Below, piece after piece: positions 11,521-57,082 of a stretch of 64,000 nucleotides of DNA (the first letter of the stretch is position 1; each line of letters opens with the position of its first letter). The position numbers and the translations under genes were made by a program. A model generated the notes under the pieces. The model had not been told where the DNA came from and did not search any database. It saw only the letters and a program-made list of their open reading frames with translations. The stretch covers positions 3,528 to 67,527 of the forward strand of contig JAAYDE010000004.1 of the NCBI GenBank assembly GCA_012729375.1, given 5' to 3'. The DNA comes from Deltaproteobacteria bacterium (GTDB lineage Bacteria; Desulfobacterota; Desulfuromonadia; Desulfuromonadales; JAAYDE01).

Positions 11521-11605
11521 CCGGTCAGCGCTGATTTGCACCTGACGGTTTTTCCGATTGGACGGAGAAACCGTTTTTGAAATATAATTCAAACCATCCT
11601 TATCC

Positions 11606-11642: not shown

Positions 11643-11692
11643 CCCCGCTACTCTGGTTCGAAATCACCTGGATCGAATCGATTTTCATTATA

Positions 11693-12667: not shown

Positions 12668-12670
12668 TCT

Positions 12671-12770: not shown

Positions 12771-12798
12771 AGTCGCCTTCACCAAAGAGGATTTTCCC

Positions 12799-14261: not shown

Positions 14262-14629
14262 GAAACCTCGTCCATCAGGCAGCGGATGATGTGGATTCCC
14301 CGTCCATGATCGTTGAGGATGTTTTCATCGGGAGGGGGCAGGGAGTTGATGTCGAACCCCTGGCCCTGGTCGTGGACGCGGATGCGCAGGCAGTCGTTAT
14401 CGATGCCGATGGAGATGTGGACCTCCTTGTCGGGATCGGCCACGTTGCCGTGGATCATGGCGTTGGCGATCGATTCGGTCAGCACCAGGTTGATGTGGTA
14501 GGCCAGTTCTTCCCGGTCCCCGCCGTATCTATCGAGGGTGCGGGCGAGGTTCTCCCCGATGTTGCCGATCAGACTCAGGTAACGGGTCTTGTTGGGAATG
14601 CGGATATTGACTTCGATTTTGTCGTGCAT
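14171..14629 (-). CDS. RsbW/SpoIIAB-like anti-sigma-type serine kinase (HATPase_c)
   Basis: 152 aa. N-box ESIANAMIHGN and G-box HDQGQGF...GRGIHII. Confidence 0.85.
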   Translation of the reverse strand: MHDKIEVNIRIPNKTRYLSLIGNIGENLARTLDRYGGDREELAYHINLVLTESIANAMIHGNVADPDKEVHISIGIDNDCLRIRVHDQGQGFDINSLPPPDENILNDHGRGIHIIRCLMDEVSYRRVDGGNVLEMVKRLSRPPLKKRDTSSE

Positions 14630-14648
14630 ACCAACCCGGGTGAGGCGC

Positions 14649-14984
14649 TCAGAAGCTGGCCAGGGCTTCCGGAACGCCGGCGAAGATTTCGAAAACCCGA
14701 TGCAAACGGGTCAGCTCAAACATCGATTTCACCTGTGTCTGCAGGCCGCAGAGTTTGAGGCTGCCGTTGCGGGCGGTAGCGTTTTTGAAACCCGACACCA
14801 GGGCGCCGAGGCCGGAGGAATCGATGAAGCGCACTCCTTTCAGATCGATGATCATGTTGTTCCTGCCCGCCTCGAAAAGGCTCAGCATCTGGGATTTGAA
14901 TTCGTTGCTGTTGTGGGCGTCCAGGCGCTCTTCCTTCAATTCGACGATTACCGCTTTTTCATGCTCCGTGACATCGCAGTTCAT
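14649..14984 (-). CDS. STAS-domain anti-sigma-factor antagonist (RsbV/SpoIIAA-like)
   Basis: FIDSSGLGALV with the phosphorylatable Ser. ATG at 14984 preceded by GGAGGAA at 5-nt spacing (the track ORF extends to 15011). Confidence 0.85.
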   Translation of the reverse strand: MNCDVTEHEKAVIVELKEERLDAHNSNEFKSQMLSLFEAGRNNMIIDLKGVRFIDSSGLGALVSGFKNATARNGSLKLCGLQTQVKSMFELTRLHRVFEIFAGVPEALASF

Positions 14985-15229
14985 GCCGGTTCCTCCGCTG
15001 ATGGTGTCCAATGATTTTCAACGTCCATGAAAAACCAAATTTTTATAAACATAACACAGTTTATTCCCGGCGGGCGGAAAACCTGTCATCTGTGGACGCC
15101 GCGAAAGTCAAGATTTTGGCTTTCGCGACCCGGATTGCGGGTTCGCCAAAGCGCCGGCCGGGACCCAAGCGATTTCCCATGATAAAACGGCTTCATGAAA
15201 ACCCAGGGCGCCGTTTTAAAGCCGTTCTC

Positions 15230-20817: not shown

Positions 20818-22512
20818 ATGGATTTCCGCCACATGAGGCTTTTTCTGCCGGTCCTGGTCCTGGCCGTCATCGGCTGTGGCCGCTGGCCCGGTTCTTCCCA
20901 AAAGGACGTCTATCCTTTCGGCGCCACGGATGGCGCCGGGAAAGCCGCTTTTTTATTTGCCAAGGCCAATCTTTTTGAAAACCAAGGCCTGATCGGAGAG
21001 GCCCAGGAAACCCTCGGTGAGGCGCTGCGCCTCGATCCCCAAGCCCCCTATCTTCATTTCCGCATGGCTTCCCTCCTCGCCCAGAAAGGAGAGAAGGAAG
21101 CCGCTTTGACTGCGGTGCGCACCGCCCTCGAACTCGATCCGAATCTCATTGACGCCCTTTTCCTGTTGGCCGAGATTCATCTGAACGCCAACGAGCCCGC
21201 CGCAGCGATCCCCCCTTTGCGGCATATTCTGAAACTGGATCCTGAAGAAGAGGGCGCCCGTCTGAAACTGGGAGTGGCCTACTCCCAGAAAGGGGATCAG
21301 CAAGAGGCGATGCGGATTTTTCAGGGAATGCTGGCCAGGGATGCCGATTCCCCCTGGGCGGGTCTGGCTCTGGGGCGCCTTTACCGGCAGCTCGGCATGA
21401 CCGCCGAGGCCGAACAACATTACCGGTCGATTATCGCCCGTCAACCCGGCTTCGAGCCGGTGGTTTTCGAACTGGGGGAACTGCTGGAACAGGCGCGGGC
21501 GTGGGCCAAGGCCGGCGAGGTCTATGACCAGGCGTTGCGGGATGATCCCGGCAATACCGAGATGCGCCTGCGGCTGGCTCAGACATTGGTGATGGAGAAC
21601 CGTCTCGAAGAGGCCATGGGCCACTACCGCTTGGTTCTGGATGCGGAGCCGGACAACCTCGAAGCGCTGCGCAAAAGCGGCCTCATTCACCTCGAACGGC
21701 AGCGCTGGTCCGCGGCGGCCGAATCCTTTGCCCGTCAAGTCCAGCTGCGTCCCGATTGGGATCACGCCCGCTACTACCTGGGCATCGCCTTGGTCCGGGA
21801 CGGTAAGGACGAAGAGGCCCTGGCCGCCTTTTCCGAAATCCGCCCCTGGTCTCCTCTCTACGACGACGCCCTGATCCATATCGGATATCTTTACCATGGC
21901 CTCGGCCGTGGCGACGAGGGGCTGGCATTCATTGAGAAAAACCTCGAGGGGCGGTCGGGAAACCCGGCCCTGTACCGTCTTCTCGGCGCCTTCTATGAGG
22001 ACCGGGGAGATGCGGCCGGCGCCCTGCGGGTTTTGGAGCGGGGTCTCGGGGCTTTCCCCAAGGATACGGACCTGCTCTATCAGAAGGGGATGTTGTTGGA
22101 GAAAACGGGGGCTGGAGAAGCTGCCAAGGCGGTTATGGAGGAAATCCTCCTGCTACAGCCGGAACATGCCGAAGCCATCAATTTCATCGCCTATTCCCTG
22201 GCTGAGCAGGGCCGGGATCTGGATCGCGCCCTGGCTCTTGCCGAACAGGCCCTGGCCCTTCGCGACAGACCCCACATCCGCGACACCCTGGGCTGGGTCC
22301 ACTACAAACGGGGGGACTACGCCGAGGCGCTGAAACATCTCCAAATGGCCCTGGCGGAAATGGGGGACGATCCCGTGGTTCAGGAACACATCGGCGATAC
22401 GCTGGCCGCCCTGGGCCGTTTTCCTGAAGCCATGGCCGCCTACCGTAGGAGCCTGGCCCAGGAACCCGACAACCCGGCGGTGCGCGACAAACTGAGGAAA
22501 CTGGAAGAATGA
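20818..22512 (+). CDS. TPR-repeat lipoprotein
   Basis: Signal peptide with lipobox LAVIGC. More than ten TPR-like repeats (recurring A..Y...L..DP motifs). Confidence 0.8.
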   Translation: MDFRHMRLFLPVLVLAVIGCGRWPGSSQKDVYPFGATDGAGKAAFLFAKANLFENQGLIGEAQETLGEALRLDPQAPYLHFRMASLLAQKGEKEAALTAVRTALELDPNLIDALFLLAEIHLNANEPAAAIPPLRHILKLDPEEEGARLKLGVAYSQKGDQQEAMRIFQGMLARDADSPWAGLALGRLYRQLGMTAEAEQHYRSIIARQPGFEPVVFELGELLEQARAWAKAGEVYDQALRDDPGNTEMRLRLAQTLVMENRLEEAMGHYRLVLDAEPDNLEALRKSGLIHLERQRWSAAAESFARQVQLRPDWDHARYYLGIALVRDGKDEEALAAFSEIRPWSPLYDDALIHIGYLYHGLGRGDEGLAFIEKNLEGRSGNPALYRLLGAFYEDRGDAAGALRVLERGLGAFPKDTDLLYQKGMLLEKTGAGEAAKAVMEEILLLQPEHAEAINFIAYSLAEQGRDLDRALALAEQALALRDRPHIRDTLGWVHYKRGDYAEALKHLQMALAEMGDDPVVQEHIGDTLAALGRFPEAMAAYRRSLAQEPDNPAVRDKLRKLEE

Positions 22513-23282
22513 GGATGACAAGACTCGCTGCGATCGGCCTGATTTTCCTGCTCTGTTCCTGTGCCCTACCGCCGACGGTTCTGCCCCCGGCCATCGAAGC
22601 GGTGACCGCGGAAGAGCTGCTCGGCCTGCTGCAACAGCGGGAAGAAGCGGACACCAGCCTGCGTGGTCTGGCCCAGATTTCGTGGCGGGAGGGAAAAGGA
22701 AACGCGCTGCGCAGCCGCCAGGCTCTGCTGATCCGCAAGCCGGGCCGTATCCGCTCGGAACTCTTCGGCCTTTTCGGGCAGCCGGTGCTGGTGGCGACGG
22801 TCAACGAGCGGGAGATCAGCGCCCTCGATCTTTCCGCAGGGGTCTTCTACCGGGGCGTGGCTTCGGCGGAAAACATTTACCGCCTGCTCCATCTGCCCCT
22901 GGCCGCCGACGATCTGGTCCGTCTTGCCCTCAACCAGGCGCCACCGGGTAATTTCCCCGACCCGCCCCTGGCCGTGGCGACGGCGCAAGGCTACCAACTG
23001 ACCCGCGCCAACCGGCAGTGGCGGCAGGAACTTCATTTCAGCCCGGAGCGGCATTTGACAAAGGTGGTTCTGTATTACCGCGGGGACCGGCAAGTGGAGG
23101 CGGAGTACGCCGATTTCACCGGCGGCGACGGGGCATTTCCCTTGCAGATGAGGCTGTTTCTGCCGCTTCGTCAGGTCGAGGTGACGATCCGTTTCACCAC
23201 CCTGGAAACCAACGTGGCCCTTGCCGATGATCTTTTCCAACTGCGCAATCCCGGCGGCTTCCGGGTCCAGCCTTTGCCATGA
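22509..23282 (+). CDS. LolB-like / DUF4292-type lipoprotein (tentative)
   Basis: Lipobox FLLCSC. About 250 aa, ATGA-coupled to the TPR gene. The family call is from memory of TPR-DUF4292 gene pairs. Confidence 0.5.
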   Translation: MRMTRLAAIGLIFLLCSCALPPTVLPPAIEAVTAEELLGLLQQREEADTSLRGLAQISWREGKGNALRSRQALLIRKPGRIRSELFGLFGQPVLVATVNEREISALDLSAGVFYRGVASAENIYRLLHLPLAADDLVRLALNQAPPGNFPDPPLAVATAQGYQLTRANRQWRQELHFSPERHLTKVVLYYRGDRQVEAEYADFTGGDGAFPLQMRLFLPLRQVEVTIRFTTLETNVALADDLFQLRNPGGFRVQPLP

Positions 23283-24970
23283 TGCGGCTTCTCGCCCTTT
23301 CTTCAGTGTCGGCAGGACGCCTCCTCCACGGCTTGCGGGCCGCCGCCCGGCAGTGGCCGGCGGCCCTTGGGCTGGCGGCGCTGATTCTGACGGCCGCCTG
23401 TGCTCCCGACGCGGAGCAGCCGGCGGCCCGCGGGGAAGGGGAAACGCCCGCCGTCTACGGCGACACCATCCTCTTCGGCAGCGGCGCCGACGCCGTGAAT
23501 CTGCTGCCGGTGCTGGCCTCCGATGCCACCTCCTCGAGCATCAACGGGCTGCTTTACAACGGCCTCGTCCGCTACGGCAAGAACCTCGAGATCGAGGGGG
23601 ATCTGGCCGAATCCTGGGAGATTTCCCAGGATCATCTCACCCTCACCTTCCATCTCCGCAAGGGTATCAAATGGCATGACGGAACCCCCTTCACCGCGGC
23701 GGATGTCCTCTTCACCTACCGCCTCTACGTCGACCCGAAAACCCCCACCGCCTATGCCGAGCGCTATCGCCAGGTGGAGCGGGCGGCGGCCCCCGACCCT
23801 TACACCTTTGTCGTTACCTATGCCAAGCCTCTGGCCTCGGCGCTGAGCAGCTGGGCCCTCGACATCCATCCCCGTCACCTTCTGGAAGGGGTCGAGATCA
23901 CCAAGAGCCCCCTTTCCGCGGCGCCGATCGGCACCGGGCCCTTCGTTTTCAGGGAGTGGCGACGGGGGGAGCGCATCGTTCTCGAAGCCAATCCCGACTA
24001 TTACGAAGGCCGGCCCCATCTGAACCGGGTGGTGTTCCGCGTCGTTCCCGATCCCACCACCATGTTCCTGGAGCTGCAGACCGGGGGCATCGACCAGATG
24101 GGGCTTACGCCGCTGCAGTACGCCCGCCAGACCGATTCCGCCAACTTCCGCCGCAACTTCCGCAAATACCGTTATCCTGCCATGGCTTACACCTATCTCG
24201 GCTTCAACCTGCGCAAGCCCCTGTTTCAGGATAAACGGGTGCGTCAGGCGATATCCTACGCCATCGACCGGGAAGAGATCGTGCAGGGCGTGCTGCTGGG
24301 GCTGGGACGGACGGCCACCGGCCCCTATGTCCCCGGCACCTGGCCCTACAACCCCGAGGTCCGCAAGTATCCCTACGACCCGGAAAAGGCCCGCGAGCTG
24401 CTGGGCCAGGCCGGATGGCAAGACAGAGACGGGGACGGTCTCCTCGACCGCGAGGGGCGGCCCTTCTCCTTTACCATCGTCACCAACCAGGGCAACGATC
24501 AGCGGATCAAGTGCGGCGAAATCATTCAGCGCCGCCTCAAGGAAGTGGGCATCGAGGTGCGCCTGCGGGTCATCGAGTGGGCTTCCTTTCTCAAGGAGTT
24601 CATCAATCCGGGGAACTTCGAGGCGACGCTGCTCGGCTGGACGGTGCCCGTCGACCCCGACGGCTACAACGTCTGGCACTCGAGCAAGACCGGCGTCGGC
24701 CAGCTCAACTTCATCCATTTCAACCATGCGGAAGCGGATGACCTGCTGGAGCGGGGGCGGCGCACCCTGGATGAGGAGGAGCGCAAGGCCATCTACGGCC
24801 GCTTTCAGGAGATCCTCGCCGAGGAACAGCCCTACGCGTTTCTCTACGTGCCCGACGCCCTGCCGGTGGTGGCGGCCCGGTTTCGGGGAATCGAACCGGC
24901 GCCGGTGGGCATCATGCACAATTTCATCCGCTGGCATGTTCCTGAATCGGAGTGGAAATACCGCAGGTGA
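23279..24970 (+). CDS. ABC transporter substrate-binding protein, family 5 (peptide/nickel, DppA/OppA-like), probable lipoprotein
   Basis: 563 aa. N-terminal signal ending LTAAC. Family-5 SBP blocks (DLAESWEIS, KGIKWHDG, YGRFQEILAEEQPY). ATGA-coupled to the upstream gene. Confidence 0.85.
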   Translation: MMRLLALSSVSAGRLLHGLRAAARQWPAALGLAALILTAACAPDAEQPAARGEGETPAVYGDTILFGSGADAVNLLPVLASDATSSSINGLLYNGLVRYGKNLEIEGDLAESWEISQDHLTLTFHLRKGIKWHDGTPFTAADVLFTYRLYVDPKTPTAYAERYRQVERAAAPDPYTFVVTYAKPLASALSSWALDIHPRHLLEGVEITKSPLSAAPIGTGPFVFREWRRGERIVLEANPDYYEGRPHLNRVVFRVVPDPTTMFLELQTGGIDQMGLTPLQYARQTDSANFRRNFRKYRYPAMAYTYLGFNLRKPLFQDKRVRQAISYAIDREEIVQGVLLGLGRTATGPYVPGTWPYNPEVRKYPYDPEKARELLGQAGWQDRDGDGLLDREGRPFSFTIVTNQGNDQRIKCGEIIQRRLKEVGIEVRLRVIEWASFLKEFINPGNFEATLLGWTVPVDPDGYNVWHSSKTGVGQLNFIHFNHAEADDLLERGRRTLDEEERKAIYGRFQEILAEEQPYAFLYVPDALPVVAARFRGIEPAPVGIMHNFIRWHVPESEWKYRR

Positions 24971-25099
24971 GAATCGTGTGAAGATGGCTGGCTGATGCCT
25001 GAAGGACAGTTTGTGGTTCGTAGCTCGTAGAAAAACCGGTAACCGGCAGCTTGTGATTGGTTTTTATGCTTTGACTATAACTGGTTGCTTGCTTATTGT

Positions 25100-25162
25100 T
25101 TGTCACTTGTCACTTGTCACTTGTCACTTGTCACTTGTCACTTGTCACTTGTCACTTGTCAC
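25100..25162 (+). repeat. Perfect tandem heptanucleotide array (TTGTCAC)x9
   Basis: Nine uninterrupted copies, counted directly. Confidence 0.95.
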
Positions 25163-25170
25163 TGTTTTTC

Positions 25171-25212
25171 TACCAGCTACCAGCTACCAGTTACCAGTTA
25201 CCAGTTACCAGT
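25171..25212 (+). repeat. Tandem heptanucleotide array (TACCAGC)x2 (TACCAGT)x4
   Basis: Six copies, counted directly. Separated from the first array by TGTTTTTC. Confidence 0.95.
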
Positions 25213-25258
25213 TACTGTTCCCTGACATGCCCCATTTTTCGTGGGTTGAAAATTCACC

Positions 25259-26233
25259 ATGTTTTTTTATCTGCTGAGAAGGGTGGCGATGATGATCCCC
25301 CTGCTGCTGGGGATCACCCTCATCACCTTTACCGTAATCCACCTGGCGCCGGGAGAACCGACCGATCTCCAGACCCAGCTCAACCCGGAAGCCAGTTCCG
25401 AGCTGCAGGAGCGGCTGCGGGCCTATTACGATCTGGACAAGCCGCTATACGTTCAATACGGCAAGTGGCTGGGGAGGTTGGCGCGGCTCGATTTCGGAGA
25501 GTCCTTTTCCCAGGACCATCGCCCGGTACTCGACAAAATCGCCGAACGTCTGCCGGTGACCGTGTTCATCAACGTGCTGTCGATTTTGGTCATTCTGGGG
25601 GTGGCCATACCGATAGGCATCCTGTCGGCGGTCCATCAGGATTCCCCCTTCGACCGGACGACCACGGTCTTCGTCTTCCTCGGTTTCGCCACCCCTTCCT
25701 TCTGGCTGGCCCTGCTGCTGATGGACCTTTTCGGCGTGCGGCTGGGGCTGTTGCCCATCGCCGGCCTGAAATCCTTCGGCTACGAGTACCTGTCGGCGGG
25801 GGGAAAGATCCTCGACCTGCTGCGCCACCTGGTGCTGCCGGTCTTCATTTCCGCCTTCGGCGGGCTGGCCGGTTTCTCCCGCTACATGCGCTCCAATATG
25901 CTCGAGGTGGTGCGTCAGGATTACATCCTCACGGCGCGGGCCAAGGGACTTGCCGAGCGGACGGTGATCCTCAAGCACGCCCTGCGCAACGCCCTGCTGC
26001 CGATCATCACCATCCTCGGCCTCTCCGTCCCCGGCCTGATCGGCGGCAGCGTCATCTTCGAGACCATCTTCGCCATCCCCGGCATGGGCAAACTCTTCTA
26101 CGACGGCGTCATGATGCGGGACTACCCGCTGATCATGGGGATTCTGGTCATCGGCGCGGTTCTCACCCTGATCGGCAACCTGCTGGCCGACATCGGCTAC
26201 GCCCTCGCCGATCCCCGCATCCGCAAATCGTAA
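25259..26233 (+). CDS. ABC transporter permease (DppB/OppB-like)
   Basis: 324 aa. [10 protein letters not shown]-terminus and EAA-loop region [27 protein letters not shown]. Confidence 0.9.
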
Positions 26234-26277
26234 AAAAAAGCTATTCTGGATGGTGAATCAAATCCACCACCGCTGGC

Positions 26278-29200
26278 TCACAGCTCCCGGTCGGCCGATC
26301 CCCCTTGCTTTTTGTCTTTGTTCGTTCCGTAGAGCAGGCGGGCGGTGTGCAGCATCCGCGCGGCGGCGCCGGTGTACCAGCTCCAGCCGCCGCGCCCCAC
26401 GTAGCCGGGACCGAAGTAGATGTCGGCGGCCTGCTGGTGGGGGGAAAGGCCGTAAGCGGCCATCCCTTCCGGGGTGGAGCGGCCGAGAGGGGAAATCTTG
26501 CGCCATAATCTTTGCGCCCGGGACCGGTAGTTTTCGGCTTGGGCGGCATTTCCTTTTTCCTTTGCCTGTTCGGCAAGGATCAGCAGAGCGTCGATAAGCC
26601 AGGAAACGCCGTGGGAATATTGGCCGCCGTTTTCCCGCACTCCCGGCGGGTAATCGGCCAGGCGGCCGGGGTAGAGGTCATCCCTTTCGCTGCAGGGCGG
26701 GGCGAACAACTGCACCAGCGTATCCTGCTCCAGTTCCCGCAGGGCCGTTTCCATGGCCGCGGCCCCCCTTTCGAAATCGACGGCGCCGGAAAGGATCGGC
26801 CAGGCGGCCATCAGGGCGTCGACCCGGGTCATCTCTTGCCCGTCATCGGTGACCAGGCGCACGTAGCGGTCTTGTCGCCACATGCCATCGAGGGCTTTCT
26901 GCAGAGCCGCGGCCTCCTTGCGGAAACCTTCCGCCGTGTCCGAATCCCCTCTTTTTTCAGCAAGTTCCACGAAATCCACAAGAATTCCGTAGAGGAAGAA
27001 GCCCATCCAGACGCTTTCCCCCAAGCCTCTGAATCCGGCGCTGTCGAGACCGTCGTTCCAGTCGCCGCTGCCGAGGAGGGGCAGGCCGTGGCGGCCTTTT
27101 CTGGACAGGGTCAGCTCGATGGCCCGCCGGCAGTGTTCGTAGAGGGTGGCGCAATCCCGGGAGGGGCGCGGCGCCACCACCTTGCCGGCGGAAAGGGGGC
27201 CGGGGCGGGGCGCTTCCAGAAAGGGAATCGTTTCCTCCAGAAGCCCCCGGTCGCCGCTGATCTGCAGGTAACGGCAAACCATGTAGGGGAGCCACAGGTG
27301 GGGGTCGGCGGCGCGTCCGCGCAGGCCGATGCCGGTTTTTCCCTCCCAGCTCCGGTGCCACCAGTGAAGCACGTCCCCTTCCCGGAACTGCTGGCCGGCA
27401 TGAAGGAGGAGCTGGTTGCGGACCAGGTCGGGATGGGAGGAAATCAGGGGCAGGACATCCTGCAGCTGGTCGCGGAAGCCGAAGGCGCCGCTGCGTTGAT
27501 AGGGGCCAAGGCGTCCCCAGAGGCGGGATACGAGGATCTGGTAGGGGAGCCAGACATTCGCCAGGCGGTCGATGTCCCCATCGCCGCTTGCCGTTTCGAC
27601 ATGGGGGAGATAGTCCCGCCACCATTGGCAGGTCGCCGCGAAGGCCTGCCGTCCCCGGTCGTTGTCCTGGAAGTTTGCGATCAGGGCTTCCGCCTCGTGA
27701 CGGGTTTGGCACTGGCCGAAGATGAGGGTGAAAGCGGTCTCGCCGCCGGCAGGGACGGTGACGGTGCCGCACAGGGCGGCGCAGCGGAAGCCGTCGTCCG
27801 GCTGGTCGGCATCGGCTCTTCCTTCGGTGACCAGGAAGGGGCGGGTGAGGTCCCGGTCCGGGCCACCGAGGAAGCGGCGGCGCACCGTCTCCACCGCCTC
27901 CACCGGGAAACCCGCCGCGGCGAAGGCCCATCCTTTCCAAAAATCGTTGTGGGGATTGGAGAAAAACAGCGCCGGCAGGTCGGAGCTGCGGGCGGTTTCG
28001 ATCTTGCCCAGGGTGTCCACAGGGGTTTCGCCGAGGAGGATCTGAATATAGGAGACGACCCGGTAGCGCAGGGGCTCGCCGGTGAGGTTGCGGAGCCTTA
28101 CCAGGCGCAGCTCGGCGGGCTGGTCGGGGAGTACGAATTGGGTCATCTCCAGTTCCGCTTCGTCGCCCCGGCTTCGGTAGATCGCGTAGCCAAGTCCCCA
28201 GAGAACTTCATAATCGCGGTCCTTTTTCCTCATGGGAAGAAGATAGGGGGTGTCGGTGCGCTGCGTGGAGAGGTTGTGCAGATAGAGAACCTGGCCCGGC
28301 AGTTGGCAGGGAACCGAATCGGTGTCGAAGGGGGTCAGCCCGTTCTGCTGGGAGTTGTTCATGAAGGAGTAACAGGCGCCGTGATTGCTGACCAGCGTGC
28401 CGTAGCCCAGGGGGTTGGCCATCATGTGGTGCCAGGGGCGGACCGTATTCCAGGGGACGGAAAGTTCGCGCCCGTCGGCGGCATAGCGGAACCGAGGGGG
28501 GAAATCACGGTTTTCTTCGCTGACCGGGGCAGGCGGTGGCGATTTTTGCGCCGCTGCCGATCCCGTAATTGCGCCGAGGATGCGCAGGGCTTCGGCCTCG
28601 CTGCCGGCATAGCCGTTGATGAAGAGGATTTCCGTCGCCGCGAGGGGGGCCAGTTCCACCCGCAGGCGGAGGCTGGCGATGGGGTCGAAACTGTAGTCGA
28701 AAATTCCTTCCTTGGGGGCTTTCCCGGCCTGGTGGAGGGCGGCTGGATGGAGGAGGGTGCCGGAACCGATGAAACGCGGGCGGGAATCCTCGTAACCGGT
28801 CACGGTGATCCCCCGGTCCTTGGCGGCGCGGACGGCGTGGAAGGCCGTTTCCCCGGAGATCCGCCGCCGGGAAGGATCCGCGTCGGCGCTTTTGTTGAGC
28901 CTGTTTTGGGCCAAAACCGCATTGACCGAAGGCAGGAAGCGGGTGCCGACATGGAGGTGGTTGTAGAAAGGGTGGCGGCGGTAGGCGTCGGTGCTGTTCA
29001 TGGCCCACTCCTGATAGCTGATCAGTTCCAGAACGCGGGGTCGTTCCTCGAGGTTGACCAGGCGCAGGCGCCAACTCTCCAGGGGCTCGTCGGGGTCGAC
29101 GCAGAGGCGGGTTTCGACGCGGAGGCCGTCGTCACGGCTGTGGACGAATTCCAGGGTGAGGGGATTGATGGGATTGATCTGCCATGTTCCTTCATCAGGG

Positions 29201-31698
29201 CCGGGGGGAACACCGGTGGCCGACCACCAGGCGCGGGGGCCTGGCGAACCGTTTTCAACTTCCGCCAGGTAGAAGAATTTCCCCCGCATCTGCAGTGGAT
29301 CGTCGGGGCGGCGGGTGATGTCGATCTCGAATCCCTTGTTGATGGCGCTGTAGACCCGGCTGTAGCCCCGTCCGCCGGAGGAGATTTCAACGGCGTAGCG
29401 GCCGTTGGCGAGCAGCCAGTTCCTTTCCGGTGTTGCTTTTGCTGTTGCCGGGCCGGGGTTGGCCATGGCGCCGGGCATGGGAAAACCCCTGAGGTGGCGT
29501 CGCGCGAGGAAAAAAGCGCTGATGGCCATGAGCGCCGCGAAACCGCCGATCAGGTAGTAGAGAGGAGGCCAGACGGTAGCGGCGAGTTCGGCGGCGCGGG
29601 ACGCGGAGGTGTCCCAGACGTAATCCCAATCGGCGCCGCGGGGGAGATAGAAGGGGATCAGCAGCGGCGCCCAGGTGGCGAAACGCCGCAAGCCTTCGGG
29701 GATGCAGCGGGTGCGGGCCGAATGGCCGATGGCGCGGGCCGCTTTTTCATCGAGGATATCAGCGCCCACAAAGGAGAGGTTGACCAGAGTGGCGACGCGC
29801 AGGCCCATGTGATCGACCCAGATGGTGATGCGCAGCCAGTCGTGGACCAGCATGTTGAGAAAGACGTCGAGGCTCCAGCCGCGGAAGGCGGCCGGCTCCA
29901 GAGCCCAGCTCTGGAAGGTGGCTATCAGGGTGCGGAAGGCGCCGTCCTGGTTGTACCAGGCGGGATCGGGAGACATGCGCAGGAAGGAATAGATGACCGG
30001 AGCCATCCACAGCCCCCAGCGCAGCACCCGCAGCGCCTGTTCCACCAGGGCGACCATCCCGCGGCGGCTGAACAGTTCCCGCAGGGGCGCCAGGCTCCGC
30101 TGCAGCAGGGCATTGAGGAGGAAAAAGTTGATGCTGAACAGGGGGGCCGCCAGTGACCAGTTGATGACCCCGGAAAGGGCCTCGTTATAGAACAGCCTTG
30201 CCGCCCCCGGCGTGGGGCCGAGGTTCATCGCCCCCCATTTGCTGAAGAGAGGGTAGATGACGTAGTCCTCCACCGGCATCCCCGACCGGGGATAGTGGAG
30301 GACGGCGTATTTGAAGAATTTCCCGGTCAGCACCTGAAGTTGGGGCAGATCGACATACCAGGCCAGGCCGCCGCCGGCAACGCCGCCCAGGGCCGCGGCC
30401 AGGGCGTAGAGGCGCCATGACTGGAGCCGCCGGCGGCGCCCGTGGGCCATCAGGAAGAGGTCGCGGAGCAGGTCGACCCCGGCGTAGGCGGACATCCCAG
30501 CGATTAGACCGAAAAGAAAACGATCCGGTCCCGAGGTCTTGGGCAATCCGCCGACAAAGGCGGCGGCGACGAACAGTCCCACCGCCGCGCCGCGCAGAGG
30601 CCCGACCCAGTCCCGGTAGTTGCGCCGCACGCGGAGGAAGAAAGGCTCGCTGCCGTCGAAGCTTTCGATGATGGTCTGGAAGAAGGGAAAAAGGACGGCG
30701 CCGATGACGGCGGCGCTGAGCAGAGGCCTGGCGGCTATGCAGGAAGAGACTTCCGGAGTGCCCAGGAGCAGGGCCGTCATCTGGATCAGGGCCAGGAAGA
30801 GGAAGCTGTAGATGGCTCCTTTGCCGAGGCCGGAGCGGAAATGGCTGCCGGCCCAGTACCAGGTCGGTTTTTTCCGGTGCAGGGCATCCATCATCAGGCC
30901 CGTGATCAGAAACGTCTGCGCCCACAGACCGGCCTGGGCAAGCATGGCGGCGCCGAGGGCCGCCGCCAGCGCCGCCGGGCGGGGAAGGGAGGCGATGAGG
31001 GGGCCCGAACCCCAGGCGGCCCATTCCGGGGTTGCCGAAGCCAGCAAGGCAGCTCCCAGAAGGAGCAGGTGCAGGCGGACATCCCGCACGCGGCGGCCGA
31101 CGACCAGCAGGCTTAAAAGGTTGGCGATGACTTCGTTGACCAGGGCGAGCAACAGGGTGCGGCCGAAAATGACCGCCGCCGTGGCGCCGAAGAGGGCGGC
31201 CGGCTTGCCGAGGGTAGCCATCAGGTCGGGTCTTCCCAGGATCAACAGGCCGTTGAAAAGGAACGGGATCAGGCCCAGGGCCAGGGCGGCCAGGGGCCGC
31301 GGCGGACCTTTTTCCACGGCCAGACTGCGCAGGGTGGTGACCAGGTGCAGGAGGATGAAAAATCCCCCGGCCAGTCCGGTCAGACGGAAGATTTCCGCAA
31401 AGGTTCCGGGGGTCTGCCAGATGGCGACAGCGGGATCGACGGCCAGGGCCAGGAGAAACGGCGCCAGCAAGTGGTGGAGGGCTTCTTTCGGTCCGGGAAG
31501 GCGGCGGGTGAACTGGTAGCGGAAGCAGGTCCCGGCCAACAGACCGAGAAGGCCGGCGGCAAGGGCGCCCGGCAAACCCCGGCCCTGGCCGGCGATGAAG
31601 GCGCCGGCCAGGGCAACGGCGGCGCCGGCGCCAAACAAGAGACCGTCGGCCGCCATACGGCGGGCGCGGGGGATGTCCGCATGGGAAGTGTCGTTCAT
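26278..31698 (-). CDS. Large membrane protein: ~760-aa polytopic N-terminal domain fused to a GH94 (cellobiose/beta-1,2-glucan phosphorylase-like, formerly GT36) module
   Basis: 1806 aa. The N-terminal part is almost entirely hydrophobic spans with no recognisable GT domain. Two GH94-type beta-sandwich regions follow (LANGRYAVEISSGGRGYS..., NPLGYGTLVSNHGACYSFMNNSQQNGLTPF...). The catalytic barrel has LLGSGDWNDGLD and ENGGQYSHG. Confidence 0.8.
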   Translation of the reverse strand: MNDTSHADIPRARRMAADGLLFGAGAAVALAGAFIAGQGRGLPGALAAGLLGLLAGTCFRYQFTRRLPGPKEALHHLLAPFLLALAVDPAVAIWQTPGTFAEIFRLTGLAGGFFILLHLVTTLRSLAVEKGPPRPLAALALGLIPFLFNGLLILGRPDLMATLGKPAALFGATAAVIFGRTLLLALVNEVIANLLSLLVVGRRVRDVRLHLLLLGAALLASATPEWAAWGSGPLIASLPRPAALAAALGAAMLAQAGLWAQTFLITGLMMDALHRKKPTWYWAGSHFRSGLGKGAIYSFLFLALIQMTALLLGTPEVSSCIAARPLLSAAVIGAVLFPFFQTIIESFDGSEPFFLRVRRNYRDWVGPLRGAAVGLFVAAAFVGGLPKTSGPDRFLFGLIAGMSAYAGVDLLRDLFLMAHGRRRRLQSWRLYALAAALGGVAGGGLAWYVDLPQLQVLTGKFFKYAVLHYPRSGMPVEDYVIYPLFSKWGAMNLGPTPGAARLFYNEALSGVINWSLAAPLFSINFFLLNALLQRSLAPLRELFSRRGMVALVEQALRVLRWGLWMAPVIYSFLRMSPDPAWYNQDGAFRTLIATFQSWALEPAAFRGWSLDVFLNMLVHDWLRITIWVDHMGLRVATLVNLSFVGADILDEKAARAIGHSARTRCIPEGLRRFATWAPLLIPFYLPRGADWDYVWDTSASRAAELAATVWPPLYYLIGGFAALMAISAFFLARRHLRGFPMPGAMANPGPATAKATPERNWLLANGRYAVEISSGGRGYSRVYSAINKGFEIDITRRPDDPLQMRGKFFYLAEVENGSPGPRAWWSATGVPPGPDEGTWQINPINPLTLEFVHSRDDGLRVETRLCVDPDEPLESWRLRLVNLEERPRVLELISYQEWAMNSTDAYRRHPFYNHLHVGTRFLPSVNAVLAQNRLNKSADADPSRRRISGETAFHAVRAAKDRGITVTGYEDSRPRFIGSGTLLHPAALHQAGKAPKEGIFDYSFDPIASLRLRVELAPLAATEILFINGYAGSEAEALRILGAITGSAAAQKSPPPAPVSEENRDFPPRFRYAADGRELSVPWNTVRPWHHMMANPLGYGTLVSNHGACYSFMNNSQQNGLTPFDTDSVPCQLPGQVLYLHNLSTQRTDTPYLLPMRKKDRDYEVLWGLGYAIYRSRGDEAELEMTQFVLPDQPAELRLVRLRNLTGEPLRYRVVSYIQILLGETPVDTLGKIETARSSDLPALFFSNPHNDFWKGWAFAAAGFPVEAVETVRRRFLGGPDRDLTRPFLVTEGRADADQPDDGFRCAALCGTVTVPAGGETAFTLIFGQCQTRHEAEALIANFQDNDRGRQAFAATCQWWRDYLPHVETASGDGDIDRLANVWLPYQILVSRLWGRLGPYQRSGAFGFRDQLQDVLPLISSHPDLVRNQLLLHAGQQFREGDVLHWWHRSWEGKTGIGLRGRAADPHLWLPYMVCRYLQISGDRGLLEETIPFLEAPRPGPLSAGKVVAPRPSRDCATLYEHCRRAIELTLSRKGRHGLPLLGSGDWNDGLDSAGFRGLGESVWMGFFLYGILVDFVELAEKRGDSDTAEGFRKEAAALQKALDGMWRQDRYVRLVTDDGQEMTRVDALMAAWPILSGAVDFERGAAAMETALRELEQDTLVQLFAPPCSERDDLYPGRLADYPPGVRENGGQYSHGVSWLIDALLILAEQAKEKGNAAQAENYRSRAQRLWRKISPLGRSTPEGMAAYGLSPHQQAADIYFGPGYVGRGGWSWYTGAAARMLHTARLLYGTNKDKKQGGSADREL

Positions 31699-31845
31699 GG
31701 GGTGGCTTTCAAAAGGATGAATTTTTCAAAGGGCGCCAAGGAGCGATTACTTTTCAATGGGTAAGCGGAAAACAAAACGATAGTGGCTGGGCATAAAGAG
31801 AGTTTTTTCGTTATGGTAAAACGCTGCGGAATTCACTCCAACGGC

Positions 31846-31883
31846 AACCGGCAAGAAGAAGTGGACCCTTCTTCTTGCCGGTT
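31846..31883 (-). promoter_or_regulatory. 16-bp perfect stem-loop between the opgG/D-like gene and the GH94 gene
   Basis: AACCGGCAAGAAGAAG-TGGACC-CTTCTTCTTGCCGGTT, 30 nt downstream of the upstream stop codon. No U-tract on the transcribed (-) strand. Confidence 0.5.
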
Positions 31884-31913
31884 TATCTCATAGTGGTTTT
31901 GCGTTTGCCGCGG

Positions 31914-33530
31914 TCAGGGCTGATGGACGTAACTCCAGGTTTCGGTCAGCACATCCGCGCCGTTTTTCAGAAAAGCGCGGAGTTCCACGGGGTTTTTCCT
32001 GTCCTGGGGAGGGATCGTGCCGCGGTCGATCTCAAAAACCAGGCGCCACTGGTTGTTGTGGCGGTTTTTATGAAGCTGGTGTTCGACGAGGCGGGCGTTG
32101 GCGCCGACATCGATGATTGCCTGCAGGGGTTCGTTTTCCGCCAGGGCGGCCAGTTCCGCGCCGGTGAAGTCGATGACGAATTTTTTGCGGTCGGCGCCTT
32201 TGCCGGCCGCGGTGCGGGTGGCGACGGCCCAGCCGCCGGGAGGGCGCCGGCCGTCGGCGAAGTAATGCCAGCTCATCCGGTAGTCGAAGCCGATCGGTTG
32301 ACCGATGGCGGGCGGGGTTGCGGGAACCCACATGGCGACGATGTTGTCATGGATCTCCTCGTCGCTGGGAATCATGAACAGAGCCACCCGTCCCGCACCC
32401 CAGGACCCGTTCGGTTGGACCCACAGGCTGGGGCGGTTTTCGTAGTTGCTTTCCATGTCGAGGTAGTGGTCGTAGTCCTGGTCCCGCTTGATGAGACCGA
32501 AGCCCTCGGGATTGACGGTGGAAAAGGAGGTCACCAGCAGGCTGCGCGGGTTGACGAGCGGACGCCAGATCCATTCGCCGTGGCCGGTTTCCATCATCAG
32601 GCCGTCGGAATCGTGGATCTCCGGCCGGAAATCGTCCACCGGGCGGATCGAGGTGTTCTCGCCGTAGTAGAACATGCTGGTCATGGGCGCGATGCCGAGC
32701 TGCTTGATTTCGGTGCGCGGGAACAGGGTGCTGCGCACGTCCATGACCGTTTCCTTGCCCGGATGGATGACAAACTCGTAGGCGCCGCTCAGGCTCGGCC
32801 CGTCGACGAGGGCGTAGAGGGTGATCTGTTTGGCGTCCGCGGCCGGTTTGCGGATCCAGAACTTGCGGAAGTAGGGGAACTCCTCGCCGCTGGGCAACCA
32901 GGTATCGATGGCGACGCCGCGGGCCGAAAGGCCGTAGTTCATGTGTTTGGCGACGGCGCGGAAGTAGCTCGCGCCGACGAAGACGGCCACCTCGTCCTGG
33001 TATTCCAAAGTGTTGATGGGATGGTGGATGCGAAAGCCGGCGAACCCCAGATCCCGGGGCACCATGGCCTTGACCTTGTCGCTTTTGTAGTCGAACTGAT
33101 CCCGTGAAAAGGGAACCTTGTGCACCTTCCCCTTGGCGTCTATGAAGTTGATGGCTACCGTCCGGTCGTAGTAAAGCCCGGGATGGAAAAACTGCAGAGT
33201 GAAGGGGAGCTTTTCATCTTTCCACAGGGCCTTGGCGGGGATAAAGCGGATATCCCGCCACTGGTCGTAACTGATCTTCATGAGCCGCTCGGGGATCTCG
33301 CCGACGGGACTTTTGAAGGGATGCCGGGAAAGGTCGCGGGCTTCGGCGACGGCGTCCCGGTAGGTGAAGGGAGGCGCCGAAGCCAACCCCGATGATGCGG
33401 CCGCAAGCAGGATGGCCAACACCGTGATCAGTCCCCACAACCCTTTCTCCGCAAACCTCAGCCGGCGGGCAGGGGGCGAGTCCTTTTGCTCCGGTGAAAG
33501 ATCAATGGACGATGGCATGGGGCGACGCAT
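31914..33530 (-). CDS. opgD: Periplasmic glucan biosynthesis protein, OpgG/OpgD (MdoG/MdoD) family
   Basis: 538 aa. Blocks FAGFRIHHPIN, GASYFRAV, EEFPYFRKFWI, RPLVNP. The N-terminus has RRLRF followed by a hydrophobic region ending ASA, a possible Tat-type signal as in OpgD. Confidence 0.8.
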   Translation of the reverse strand: MRRPMPSSIDLSPEQKDSPPARRLRFAEKGLWGLITVLAILLAAASSGLASAPPFTYRDAVAEARDLSRHPFKSPVGEIPERLMKISYDQWRDIRFIPAKALWKDEKLPFTLQFFHPGLYYDRTVAINFIDAKGKVHKVPFSRDQFDYKSDKVKAMVPRDLGFAGFRIHHPINTLEYQDEVAVFVGASYFRAVAKHMNYGLSARGVAIDTWLPSGEEFPYFRKFWIRKPAADAKQITLYALVDGPSLSGAYEFVIHPGKETVMDVRSTLFPRTEIKQLGIAPMTSMFYYGENTSIRPVDDFRPEIHDSDGLMMETGHGEWIWRPLVNPRSLLVTSFSTVNPEGFGLIKRDQDYDHYLDMESNYENRPSLWVQPNGSWGAGRVALFMIPSDEEIHDNIVAMWVPATPPAIGQPIGFDYRMSWHYFADGRRPPGGWAVATRTAAGKGADRKKFVIDFTGAELAALAENEPLQAIIDVGANARLVEHQLHKNRHNNQWRLVFEIDRGTIPPQDRKNPVELRAFLKNGADVLTETWSYVHQP

Positions 33531-33640: not shown

Positions 33641-34306
33641 TCAACGCCCTTGCAGGGCCTTGTCGATATCCTCTGTCTTGCCGAGAAAGATGAGCAGGTC
33701 GCTGTCCTTGATGAGGTAGGCGGGGGAAGGAGCCAGGGAAAAGTTCCCGGTCAGGACATCCTTGATGCCGATGACGGTGACATGGTGTTTCTTGCGCAGA
33801 TCGAGGTCGGCAAGGGTTTTGCCCAGATAATGTTGCGGCGCGCTCGCCTCGGTGATGGTGTACTCCTCGGTGAGGGGGATGAATTCGAGGATGTTGGGAA
33901 TGGAAAGGCTGCGGGCGATTTTGACGGCGATGTCCTTTTCCGGAAAGATGACATCGTTGGCTCCCACTTTTTTCAGGATGCGGCCGTGATCTTCGTTGAT
34001 TGCCTTGACCAGGATGCGGGGAACATCCATCTCCTTGAGGTAGAGGGTGATCAGGGTGGCCATATGGGAACGCTCGCCGGTGGAAACGACCACTGCCGTC
34101 ATCTCCTCGATCCCCTGGCCGGCAAGGAACTCCTTGTTGCCGGCGTCGCCGAGAACGGCGTAAGTGCAGTAATCGACGATACGCTGCACCTTTTCCTGAT
34201 CGATGTCGATGGCGACGACCTCGCTTCCCGCCTCGTAAAGAGCCCGGGCGACGTGAAAACCGAAATTTCCCAGCCCGATGACGGCAAAACGGCTCTGTTT
34301 TTTCAT
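33641..34306 (-). CDS. trkA: Trk/Ktr potassium uptake system NAD-binding (RCK) subunit
   Basis: 221 aa. Rossmann GLGNFG plus a C-terminal RCK_C domain. Confidence 0.9.
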   Translation of the reverse strand: MKKQSRFAVIGLGNFGFHVARALYEAGSEVVAIDIDQEKVQRIVDYCTYAVLGDAGNKEFLAGQGIEEMTAVVVSTGERSHMATLITLYLKEMDVPRILVKAINEDHGRILKKVGANDVIFPEKDIAVKIARSLSIPNILEFIPLTEEYTITEASAPQHYLGKTLADLDLRKKHHVTVIGIKDVLTGNFSLAPSPAYLIKDSDLLIFLGKTEDIDKALQGR

Positions 34307-34351
34307 CCTTTGACTCCTTGGCGCCTTGCGGCGCCGATTGGCGGTGGTAAT

Positions 34352-35725
34352 TCAACCGATCATGATATTTTCTCGGCCGTAGCGGATGCCGTCCTGGCGG
34401 GTTTTCCTGGCGATGGAGAAGGCCACGGTGAGCAGGCCGACGCGGCCGACGAACATCAACAGAATGACGAGAACCTTGGCCGCCGGCAGCAACTGGCTCG
34501 TGGCGCCCAATGAGAGACCGACGGTGGCGAAGGCGGAAACCGCCTCGAAGCTGTAGACCATATAGCCGGCCAGAGTGTCCGCCGTCGCCGGACCGGGAAG
34601 CTGAATGGCAAGGAGGGCGAATATGGCGCCGGCGATAAGCAGAAGGGCGAGCATCACCAGGGAAAGGGTTTTGGTGATGGCCTCGTCGGGAATGGTCCGG
34701 CGGTAGATGTTGGTGTGAGGATTTCCCTTCAAGCGGCTGCGGAGGATGGCGATAAACAGGGCCAGGGTGGTGGTTTTGATGCCGCCGCCGGCGGAGCCGG
34801 GAGAGGCGCCGATGAACATCAGGAAGGTCAGCAGGAAGAGTGTTGACGGCCGCAGCAGACTGAGGTCGATGGTGTTGAAACCGGCGGTGCGCGTCGTCAC
34901 CGACTGGAAGAGGGCGGTCCAGAAACCTTCCGTCCAGGTCATGCCGGCAAAGGCGGCGCCGGATTCCAGAAGGCCGATCAGCAGCGCTCCGCCGACAATG
35001 AGCACGGCCGAAGTAATCAGTACCACCCGGGAATGGAGGGAAAGGCGTCGCCGCGCCGTTTTGCGGCGCCATGGCGCCAGGGACAGCAGCTCGCGAATGA
35101 CCAGGAAACCGATACCACCGGAAACAATCAAAACAATGATGACGAGGTTGATCAGGGGGTGGCTGCGGTAGCCGACCAGACTGTCGGGAAAAAGGGAGAA
35201 GCCGGCATTGCAGAAGGCGGAAACGGAATGGAAAAGACTGGCGTAAAGACCCGGCCAGAAACCCGATCGGGGGATGAGCACGAAAGAGATCAGCAGGGCG
35301 CCGACTGCTTCGATGATCAGGGTTGCCAGGAGGATTTCCCGGATCAGCTCACGAAGTGAGCCGACCGGGGTGTGGAGCAGGGTTTCCTGAATCATCCAGC
35401 GTCCGCGGACGCCGACGCCGATGCGCAGATAGAAAAAGAGATAGACGGAAAAAGTGGTGATGCCGATGCCGCCGAGCTGGATCAGGGCGAGGACGACCAA
35501 CTGGCCGAAAAGGCTCAGGCGGCTGCCGGTGTCGACGACGGCCAGGCCGGTGACGCACTGGGCCGAGGTGGCGGTGAACAGGGCGTCGAGAAAGGAGAGG
35601 GGTGCGCCGACGGCGGCTGCCGGCAGCCGAAGCAGAATGGTTCCCGTCAGGACGGCGGCGGCATAGGTCAGAATCAGCGTTTGTCCCGGTGTCGGCGTTT
35701 TCAACCATGAACGTGGAGCGGCCAT
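34352..35725 (-). CDS. trkH: TrkH/KtrB-family potassium transporter membrane subunit
   Basis: 457 aa, polytopic. Repeated selectivity-filter-like motifs (TGLAV, NAGFS, RTAGFN, GGGIKT). Confidence 0.9.
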   Translation of the reverse strand: MAAPRSWLKTPTPGQTLILTYAAAVLTGTILLRLPAAAVGAPLSFLDALFTATSAQCVTGLAVVDTGSRLSLFGQLVVLALIQLGGIGITTFSVYLFFYLRIGVGVRGRWMIQETLLHTPVGSLRELIREILLATLIIEAVGALLISFVLIPRSGFWPGLYASLFHSVSAFCNAGFSLFPDSLVGYRSHPLINLVIIVLIVSGGIGFLVIRELLSLAPWRRKTARRRLSLHSRVVLITSAVLIVGGALLIGLLESGAAFAGMTWTEGFWTALFQSVTTRTAGFNTIDLSLLRPSTLFLLTFLMFIGASPGSAGGGIKTTTLALFIAILRSRLKGNPHTNIYRRTIPDEAITKTLSLVMLALLLIAGAIFALLAIQLPGPATADTLAGYMVYSFEAVSAFATVGLSLGATSQLLPAAKVLVILLMFVGRVGLLTVAFSIARKTRQDGIRYGRENIMIG

Positions 35726-57075: not shown

Positions 57076-57082
57076 CGACACC

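Follow-up and report, generated by a model that had tools for sequence, protein, structure and literature searches.

A 64,000-nucleotide (64-kb) stretch of contig JAAYDE010000004.1 from a Deltaproteobacteria bacterium (referred to below as the window) contains an opgG-like gene directly upstream of a gene that encodes a fusion of a large polytopic membrane domain to a Cgs-type GH94 phosphorylase module. We infer that this transmembrane (TM)-GH94 fusion represents a conserved, uncharacterised architecture that ties periplasmic beta-1,2-glucans to the cytoplasm. Our preferred reading, to which we assign a probability of roughly 40%, is that the fusion is a translocase-phosphorylase that draws periplasmic beta-1,2-glucan inward and yields glucose-1-phosphate (G1P), either for turnover or for size control. 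We know of no turnover route for osmoregulated periplasmic glucans (OPGs), and how periplasmic beta-1,2-glucans are supplied and removed is poorly understood. The chemistry of OpgH has not been fully confirmed and the partner of OpgG is debated (PMC10514313).

An earlier note on this DNA, made from the sequence alone, had described two GH94-type beta-sandwich regions and a barrel with a GDWND motif in the fusion protein. Pfam searches agree with this description. PF06165 (GH94 supersandwich) matches two stretches of the fusion with 256 bits (cut-off 23) and PF17167 (GH94 catalytic domain) matches residues 1359-1784 with 224 bits (cut-off 27; E = 2.8e-66), and the two sandwiches correspond to GP1 and GP2 of a Cgs-type module. 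The module scores 451 bits against Cgs (E = 8e-134) but at most 146 bits against cellobiose, chitobiose and laminaribiose phosphorylases. Two stretches are aligned, fusion residues 762-1028 with Cgs residues 1543-1786 and fusion residues 1063-1784 with Cgs residues 2024-2740, and the linker between GP1 and GP2 is about 34 residues long in the fusion compared to about 237 in Cgs. The published domain map of Cgs places the beginning of GP at residue 1536 and RFL, as an insert, at residues 1847-2012 (PMC10901819). Together with the aligned stretches, this indicates that the fusion contains a complete GP1-GP2-GP3 phosphorylase module without the RFL insert.

GP3 of the fusion contains the catalytic GDWND motif (residues 1545-1549) and the phosphate-site motifs GFRDQLQD (from residue 1407) and RENGGQYSH (1688-1696), all of which align to the same motifs in Cgs. 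Among 56 full-length homologues, D1546, W1547, D1549, R1409, D1410, R1688, E1689, N1690 and H1696 are invariant (at least 97%), which suggests that the family is an active-looking phosphorylase. Recognition of both the supersandwich and the (alpha/alpha)6 domain, along with the presence of the catalytic Asp and the phosphate-site Arg and His, places the module in CAZy family GH94 (clan GH-Q). Its specificity is predicted to be for beta-1,2 linkages, based on the similarity to Cgs and the linkage to OpgG.

The membrane domain had been described as a region of about 760 residues with no recognisable glycosyltransferase fold. It is slightly smaller (about 740 residues), but the absence of a glycosyltransferase signal was upheld by every approach that we used. 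Residues 1-760 have no Pfam or NCBIfam match, and Pfam searches with two separate halves were empty even at E <= 10. A 37-sequence profile of the domain was searched against all PDB sequences, including full-length Cgs, with a best E-value of 1.3, and phmmer was likewise empty. Comparison of the family profile with a 17-sequence OpgH profile using hhalign gave a probability of 0.1%. An AlphaFold2 model of residues 1-740, built from a 54-sequence alignment, is confident (mean predicted local distance difference test score 85.5; predicted template-modelling score 0.84) and helical throughout except for one short hairpin. A Foldseek search with this model against 350,542 PDB chains returned only noise (best E = 0.08, template-modelling scores <= 0.13), a membrane pyrophosphatase being among these matches with a score of 0.12. 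No fold or profile similarity was detected to solved glycan translocases or membrane glycosyltransferases (GT-C, BcsA-type, ABC, MFS and MOP/Wzx), and a GT84 or GT2 domain hidden in the N-terminal region, which the earlier note had named among the findings that would count against it, was detected by neither single-sequence, profile, hhalign nor Foldseek searches. As far as these tools detect, GT2, GT84, GT-C, ABC, MFS and BcsA-like identities for residues 1-760 are therefore rejected at the level of sequence, profile and fold. Segment-versus-segment hhalign revealed no internal duplication, with high scores arising only from overlapping segment ends. As no glycosyltransferase is detectable in the fusion, phosphorolysis or its reverse is the only recognisable chemistry.

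Hydropathy, helix boundaries and the positive-inside rule point to approximately 18 TM helices with an N-in/C-in topology. The last TM helix (approximately residues 708-735) is followed by RRHLR, so the GH94 module is predicted to lie in the cytoplasm, as in Cgs. Homologues with N-terminal extensions agree with this topology, since a signal peptide, repeats in the periplasm and a single additional TM helix precede their conserved domain. Approximately 75 positions of the membrane domain are invariant and they are concentrated in residues 545-700, where the core motifs are RWGLWM (560-565), WxNQDG (581-586), DHMGxRVATLVN (629-640), D647, D650, RRFxTW (671-676), W691 and W695. Under the predicted topology, the aromatic-rich WxNQDG and RRFxTW/W691/W695 segments would be exposed on the periplasmic face while D629, H630, R634 and N640 would lie within a TM helix. 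This pattern of residues fits a glycan-handling, possibly ion-coupled machine better than it fits a plain anchor, and the domain probably forms the link between periplasmic glucan and the cytoplasmic active site.

The gene upstream of the fusion was correctly recognised in the earlier note as an OpgG/OpgD homologue, and both open reading frames (ORFs) lie where it had placed them, co-oriented on the minus strand. The product has a full-length match to Pfam MdoG (PF04349; 627 bits, E = 3.6e-188, residues 55-534, profile positions 1-476 of 478). Its nearest PDB match is E. coli OpgG (1txk/8ip2, E = 1e-127, approximately 47% identity), followed by Xanthomonas OpgD (XccOpgD, 8x18, E = 5e-111) and E. 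coli OpgD (8iox, E = 9e-92). OpgG and OpgD are beta-1,2-glucanases or transglycosylases (PMC10514313; PMC11842490), in which the general acid is D361 of EcOpgG or D388 of EcOpgD and the general base is D300 of EcOpgD (PMC10514313). Both catalytic Asp residues are retained here. The general acid is D395 (in HDNIV), which aligns with the site that differs between 1txk (D) and the D361N mutant 8ip2 (N), and D307, within the conserved RPEIHDSDGL (EIHDSDGL) motif, is equivalent to the second catalytic Asp. The MdoG match, the matches to solved OpgG and OpgD structures and the Asp pair together assign the protein to GH186. A possible Tat-type RRLRF signal gained no support from comparison with orthologues. 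The twin arginine is off-register, and orthologue N-termini vary, some lacking RR and some having a possible lipobox and resembling lipoproteins. OpgG is exported by Sec and OpgD by Tat. For this protein, Tat export is not supported by conservation of the twin-arginine character among orthologues.

To place the pair in a broader context, we scanned one genome per GTDB species for the fusion using a pattern search and collected loci with 10 kb on either side. This yielded 72 fusion loci from several phyla, with a fusion of approximately 1820-1900 aa (amino acids) in every locus that was long enough. OpgG adjoins the fusion in nine of the 72 loci, upstream of it in three (L001-L003) and downstream in six (L006, L008, L009, L011, L056 and L063). 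A search from the OpgG side in metagenomes gave a further view from 80 loci. The fusion is directly downstream of all 11 OpgG relatives that are at least 69% identical to the OpgG of the window (eight metagenome loci, L078-L085, and three genome loci), whereas nearly all relatives with 54% identity or less adjoin OpgH. Between these, a clade of OpgG sequences with 58-62% identity has neither the fusion nor OpgH adjacent, its neighbours being a methyltransferase and a CNNM transporter, meaning that the lack of OpgH at a locus does not imply its lack in the genome. The expected co-conservation of the pair therefore holds among close relatives of this OpgG but not from the side of the fusion, as approximately 60 of the 72 genomic loci have no OpgG within 10 kb, including all alphaproteobacterial and Desulfomicrobium loci.

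In a neighbour-joining tree of OpgG, fusion-linked sequences occur in three places: the opgG-fusion clade of the window, a fusion-opgG clade (gaps of 25-140 nt) that is sister to an OpgH-linked group, and L063. OpgG adjacency arose in three separate gene orders. L063, from a Victivallales metagenome-assembled genome (MAG; CAYYJS010000044.1, plus strand), has the fusion (9218-14707), opgG (14732-16315) and opgH (to 19052) in a tight co-oriented row and is the sole locus with both a TM-GH94 fusion and a GT2 OpgH. The repeated linkage and the L063 operon make a strong case that the fusion is functionally tied to the OPG system and that this tie has arisen repeatedly. In the window itself, the earlier statement that no GT2 or GT84 gene is present was confirmed: none was identified by Pfam among approximately 50 ORFs and in precomputed Pfam annotation near the pair (Pfam gave no match for several ORFs at 51-58 kb or for a few more), a tblastn search with E. 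coli OpgH had no match, and no opgH belonging to the same operon lies within the 64 kb.

The hosts of the fusion include Thermodesulfobacteriota (Desulfomicrobium, Desulfovibrionaceae, Desulfobacterales and a Desulfuromonadaceae MAG with 77-85% identity), Alphaproteobacteria (Methylocystis, Methylosinus, Methylocapsa, Methylovirgula, Lichenibacterium and Rhodoblastus), some Gammaproteobacteria and one Victivallales MAG. When 1.84 billion representatives were searched exhaustively with HMMER, 419 of them matched with E <= 1e-3 and 159 with E <= 1e-30. Full-length members were found only in this representative search and in the genome loci. A word-indexed homologue search recovered only proteins of up to approximately 1160 aa, mostly pieces of 150-450 aa on long ENA contigs, and frameshifts seem to interrupt many of the gene copies in long-read assemblies. 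Two labels are attached to members in their sources, "cyclic beta-1,2-glucan synthetase" and "glycosyl transferase family 36", and neither suits their domain content. Our literature searches turned up no published account of TM-GH94 fusions or of host-genus glucans, and this architecture goes unmentioned in reviews of beta-1,2-glucan enzymes (PMC10901819; PMC11842490).

Some members have N-terminal extensions of 220-720 residues, consisting of one to four tandem modules of approximately 170 aa (P0033, P0036 and P0030) without Pfam matches. The repeats are modelled as jelly rolls (pLDDT of approximately 80 within repeats). The best single-domain fold match is carbohydrate-binding module family 11 (CBM11; 1v0a/6r31, target template-modelling score of approximately 0.6), tandem CBM22 is matched with E = 6e-8 (4xup), and a chain of the beta-1,2-glucanase 5z06 is also matched. 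One further protein, P0250, is a stand-alone protein made of such jelly-roll repeats with a C-terminal TM anchor. In two loci from JGI sample 3300041964 (L158 and L159, 10001-15552, plus strand) gene calling gives one gene for the membrane domain (714 aa) and another, 50 nt away, for the GH94 module (1118 aa). Either the split is natural or the two loci share a stop or frameshift.

Most copies of the fusion stand alone. Around them, we found no recurrent glycosyltransferase, transporter or glucosidase, and the neighbours are otherwise housekeeping genes. In 12 loci from Methylocystis and its relatives (within L021-L069), the start of an acetate kinase family gene lies a few bases ahead of the stop codon of the fusion (e.g., L028, 15262-16479, plus strand), which hints at translational coupling with acetyl-phosphate/ATP metabolism. 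In three gammaproteobacterial loci (L034, L035 and L039), two diguanylate cyclases (7TMR-DISM-GGDEF and PAS-GAF-GGDEF) are directly upstream of and co-oriented with the fusion, and a class-I adenylate cyclase is downstream (for example, 5909-9746 and 16060-18927 in L034, plus strand). These loci may be under second-messenger control.

In the mechanism that we favour, the OpgG-like GH186 enzyme would be exported and would bind or cut periplasmic beta-1,2-glucan, giving free linear chains. The fusion protein would reside in the inner membrane with its GH94 module facing the cytoplasm, and its membrane domain would take a chain from the periplasmic side and feed it to the active site of GH94 with the non-reducing end leading. 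Among the predicted features of this domain are aromatic-rich loops facing the periplasm, buried invariant Asp, His, Arg and Asn residues and, in some homologues, periplasmic CBM-like repeats. Using phosphate, the GH94 module would then remove glucose units as G1P, and a high cytoplasmic ratio of inorganic phosphate (Pi) to G1P, which favours phosphorolysis, could act as a ratchet that draws the chain in. A periplasmic glucan made by a separate OpgH- or Cgs-type synthase would thereby be turned over, controlled in size or salvaged at a saving of energy.

As GH94 enzymes act at the non-reducing end, a chain that spans the membrane could be either shortened (inward movement) or lengthened (outward movement). 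We favour inward movement because cellular Pi greatly exceeds G1P, because to our knowledge every characterised GH94 enzyme is phosphorolytic in vivo, because no source of a primer is apparent, and because the operon in L063 includes a true synthase. The homologous GH94 module in Cgs phosphorolyses in vivo (PMC11842490). GT84 and GH94 coexist within Cgs (PMC10901819; PMC11842490), and by analogy the coexistence of the fusion with a UDP-glucose synthase in L063 would argue for a translocase-phosphorylase. OpgG or OpgD would be a natural feeder for such a machine. The full-length homology of the GH94 module to the length-controlling phosphorylase part of Cgs, its invariant catalytic and phosphate-site residues, and its predicted cytoplasmic location are further points for this reading. 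The repeated OpgG linkage in three gene orders, the CBM11/CBM22-like periplasmic repeats and the adjacency of the membrane and GH94 modules even when they are called as two genes also count in its favour, and the acetate kinase overlap in Methylocystis is weakly consistent with a catabolic context.

Other observations weigh against inward translocation. No synthase was found near the pair in the clade of the window or beside most stand-alone copies, so an unseen opgH or cgs is needed elsewhere in each genome. A degradative device within a synthase operon, as in L063, could lead to futile cycling if size control is not its purpose. No locus in the Thermodesulfobacteriota-type OpgG clades combines the fusion with OpgH, and this mutual exclusivity resembles gene displacement. 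Finally, we know of no case in which a glucan polymer is imported through an inner-membrane channel.

The gene displacement pattern speaks for the main alternative, in which the fusion is a synthase-exporter that replaces OpgH and is independent of nucleotide sugars, but which we consider unlikely. GH94 would run in reverse and add glucose from G1P at the non-reducing end, the chain would be extruded reducing end first, possibly driven by the proton-motive force, and the OpgG-like enzyme would cut OPG-sized pieces, thereby pulling the equilibrium and leaving a stub as primer. The fusion occupies the place of OpgH downstream of opgG in every close relative (eight metagenome and three genome loci), the second clade has closely spaced fusion-opgG pairs (25-140 nt), and the fusion-linked OpgG clades nest among OpgH-linked ones with OpgH in none of their loci. 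The window yielded no GT2 or GT84 gene, and most copies stand alone, as Cgs does. The sulfate-reducing and methanotrophic hosts are not sugar users, so the glucan is likely endogenous. The CBM-like repeats, single TM helix, polytopic domain and cytoplasmic catalytic domain recall BcsB plus BcsA, the invariant charged residues of the membrane domain are more suggestive of an active machine than of a passive pore, and reverse phosphorolysis of beta-1,2-glucan works in vitro with 1,2-beta-oligoglucan phosphorylase (SOGP). However, the Pi/G1P ratio in vivo is unfavourable to synthesis, we know of no GH94 enzyme that polymerises in vivo, and there is no visible source of the first primer. A true OpgH is present in the same operon in L063, one clade of close OpgG relatives has neither partner adjacent, and the 60 or so fusion loci without a nearby OpgG argue against a simple replacement of OpgH. 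The earlier note had offered a synthesis or export route alongside a recycling or length-control module, and our results only shift the weights between them. The suggestion of glucan synthesis without OpgH retains the mutual exclusivity of the two genes in its favour, but is opposed by the L063 operon, by the many loci without OpgG and by the phosphorolytic nature of GH94. That a G1P-driven beta-1,2-glucan synthase-exporter, using a new class of translocase, displaced OpgH as the partner of OpgG in some Thermodesulfobacteriota is rather doubtful.

A less probable arrangement is that of a "split Cgs", in which nascent chains emerging from OpgH or another glycosyltransferase are trimmed by the GH94 module at the cytoplasmic face of that enzyme, and the membrane domain only docks the protein or senses the membrane or osmotic state, with no glucan passing through it. 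The L063 operon (fusion-opgG-opgH) would suit this arrangement, as would the presence of trkHA and mscL near the pair in the window, although the trkHA synteny is restricted to the closest relatives. A membrane domain of 740 aa with approximately 18 TM helices, approximately 75 invariant positions, aromatic periplasmic loops and optional CBM repeats is excessive for a docking anchor, and most loci have no nearby synthase. Processive GT2 synthases hold the non-reducing end in the glycosyltransferase site, where it is inaccessible to a second enzyme. In favour of a split Cgs, the homologous GP module of Cgs performs length adjustment and has a scaffolding role (PMC10901819; PMC11842490).

Least probable, and in our view quite improbable, is that the fusion serves the uptake and phosphorolysis of foreign glucans or oligosaccharides (beta-1,2-glucans of neighbouring cells or another beta-linkage) unrelated to the cell's own OPGs: known sophoro-oligosaccharide phosphorylases are found in catabolic clusters with importers, CBM11/22-like repeats bind various beta-glucans, Victivallales are saccharolytic and the specificity rests on similarity to Cgs, but growth on sugars is not a trait of most fusion hosts, co-conservation extends to no outer-membrane glycan transporter, beta-glucosidase or regulator, OpgG, which marks the OPG system of the cell itself, is the only recurrent carbohydrate-related neighbour, and the similarity to Cgs GP (451 bits) is far above that to the cellobiose, chitobiose and laminaribiose phosphorylases.

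The features of the pair and its immediate surroundings are listed below.

Features of the opgG-fusion region, in window coordinates
Feature	Position	Strand	Details
Fusion gene: polytopic membrane domain and Cgs-type GH94 module	26278..31698	minus	1806 aa
GP3, GH94 (alpha/alpha)6 catalytic domain	26347..27624	minus	residues 1359-1784; PF17167
GP2, GH94 supersandwich	27709..28512	minus	residues 1063-1330; PF06165 at 1088-1328; aligns to Cgs 2024 onward
GP1, first GH94-type beta-sandwich	28609..29415	minus	residues 762-1030; aligns to Cgs 1543-1786 (phmmer vs 8rf9)
N-terminal membrane domain	29479..31698	minus	residues 1-740; all-helical, predicted ~18 TM helices
Most conserved core of membrane domain	29599..30066	minus	residues 545-700; from 56 full-length homologues and family alignments
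Stem-loop AACCGGCAAGAAGAAG...CTTCTTCTTGCCGGTT	31846..31883	minus	perfect 16-bp stem, GC-rich, ~30 nt after opgG-like stop, no T-run
OpgG-type gene (GH186; OpgG/OpgD, MdoG)	31914..33530	minus	538 aa; periplasmic beta-1,2-glucan processing
N-terminal export signal of OpgG-like protein	33375..33530	minus	residues 1-52; hydrophobic core, then ASA followed by PP (translation)
trkA (33641-34306) and trkH (34352-35725)	33641..35725	minus	K+ uptake; directly upstream of the pair (Pfam on identical contigs)

The opgG-like gene and the fusion gene are separated by a 215-nt spacer, which is AT-rich outside the stem-loop. The RNA fold of the spacer (31699-31913, minus strand) has a minimum free energy of -56 kcal/mol (z = -3.1). 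A search with Rfam identified no family in the window, spacer included, and a riboswitch sought in the spacer was not found, only the hairpin. Between the two genes, the stem-loop may attenuate the transcript or make it more stable. As a partial terminator, or as an element for mRNA processing or stabilisation, it could determine how much OpgG is expressed relative to the fusion.

The genes trkH, trkA, opgG and the fusion form a co-oriented row (precomputed annotation of identical contigs). A promoter-like site was detected only upstream of trkH, and a terminator scan found no T-tailed terminator between the four genes, so trkHA may be co-transcribed with the pair. The linkage of trkHA to the pair is limited to the closest relatives (L001 and L078), so the osmoregulatory flavour of the region is suggestive only, and the evidence for an osmoregulation island, with trkHA upstream and mscL nearby, is weak. 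Also near the pair are tonB, an OmpA-VWA gene, and ABC permease and SBP_bac_5 genes that converge on the 3' end of the fusion. The latter two belong to a plus-strand row (20818-26233) that encodes a TPR protein, a DUF4292 (LolB-like) protein, SBP_bac_5 and a single ABC permease and ends 44 nt from the stop codon of the fusion, with no second permease or ATPase following. A 386-aa ORF at 25096-26256 was rejected as a wrong-frame shadow of the ABC permease gene (25259-26233). Elsewhere in the window, a fusion of a response-regulator receiver to PilZ (c-di-GMP-binding) is encoded at 10339-11520 (plus strand), approximately 15 kb from the glucan genes. An ORF at 59392-60372 (plus strand) unusually joins an IS200-like Y1 transposase domain to the C-terminal helix-turn-helix of DnaA. 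At 51045-58357, six ORFs in a row (179-518 aa) have no Pfam match with E <= 1e-5 and could be either poorly called frames or an uncharacterised gene block.

If the inward reading is true, the fusion would be a polymer "retro-translocase" powered by phosphorolysis that saves bond energy as G1P, which would be attractive for energy-limited anaerobes and for methanotrophs. If movement is instead outward, it would be a polysaccharide synthase that uses no nucleotide sugar and the first phosphorylase-driven synthase of an envelope polysaccharide. Movement in either direction would thus be a novelty. Recognition of the family also corrects the widespread mis-annotation of its members, and cultured, partly genetically tractable hosts are available (Methylocystis, Methylosinus, Methylocapsa and Lichenibacterium).

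Among known systems, BcsA-BcsB resembles the extended homologues in its layout, with carbohydrate-binding jelly rolls in the periplasm, one TM helix as anchor, a polytopic domain and cytoplasmic catalysis at the non-reducing end. This is an analogy only, as there is no sequence or fold similarity (Foldseek against PDB), the catalytic domain is GH94 rather than GT2, and the fusion has no PilZ domain. SOGPs (Listeria innocua Lin1839 and L. phytofermentans 5H3Z) share the GP1-GP2-GP3 architecture of a GH94 that lacks RFL, a reaction presumed to be beta-1,2-glucan(n) + Pi = glucan(n-1) + G1P, and the logic of import followed by phosphorolysis. They differ in being soluble and fed by a separate ABC transporter, whereas the membrane part of the fusion is covalently joined and has no known transporter fold, and phmmer with the fusion against PDB recovered no SOGP sequence at E <= 10. 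As in E. coli opgGH, the gene for the membrane partner lies directly downstream of, and co-oriented with, the opgG-like gene. Unlike OpgH, this partner is not a GT2 protein and has a phosphorylase module in place of a UDP-glucose transferase, which indicates at the sequence level that the fusion is not an OpgH.

The closest comparison is with Cgs, from which the fusion differs in several respects. It lacks GT84, with nothing aligning N-terminal of Cgs residue 1543 in phmmer or family-profile hmmsearch comparisons, and it lacks the GH189/GH144-like cyclase (Cgs 979-1535), its last TM helix running straight to GP1. It also lacks the RFL insert, is approximately 1000 aa shorter, has an unrelated 740-aa membrane domain with approximately 18 TM helices in place of the six of Cgs, and pairs with OpgG in some lineages, which Cgs does not. 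As GT84, the cyclase, RFL and the TM core all set it apart, the fusion is not a Cgs, although its action would be like that of the GP module of Cgs or of SOGP. Both the fusion and Cgs are nevertheless giant proteins of the inner membrane with GH94 at the C-terminal end, in the cytoplasm as predicted for the fusion (fusion 762-1784 corresponding to Cgs 1543-2740, GP1 to GP3), and they share identical GDWND and phosphate-site residues and a tie to beta-1,2-glucan biology.

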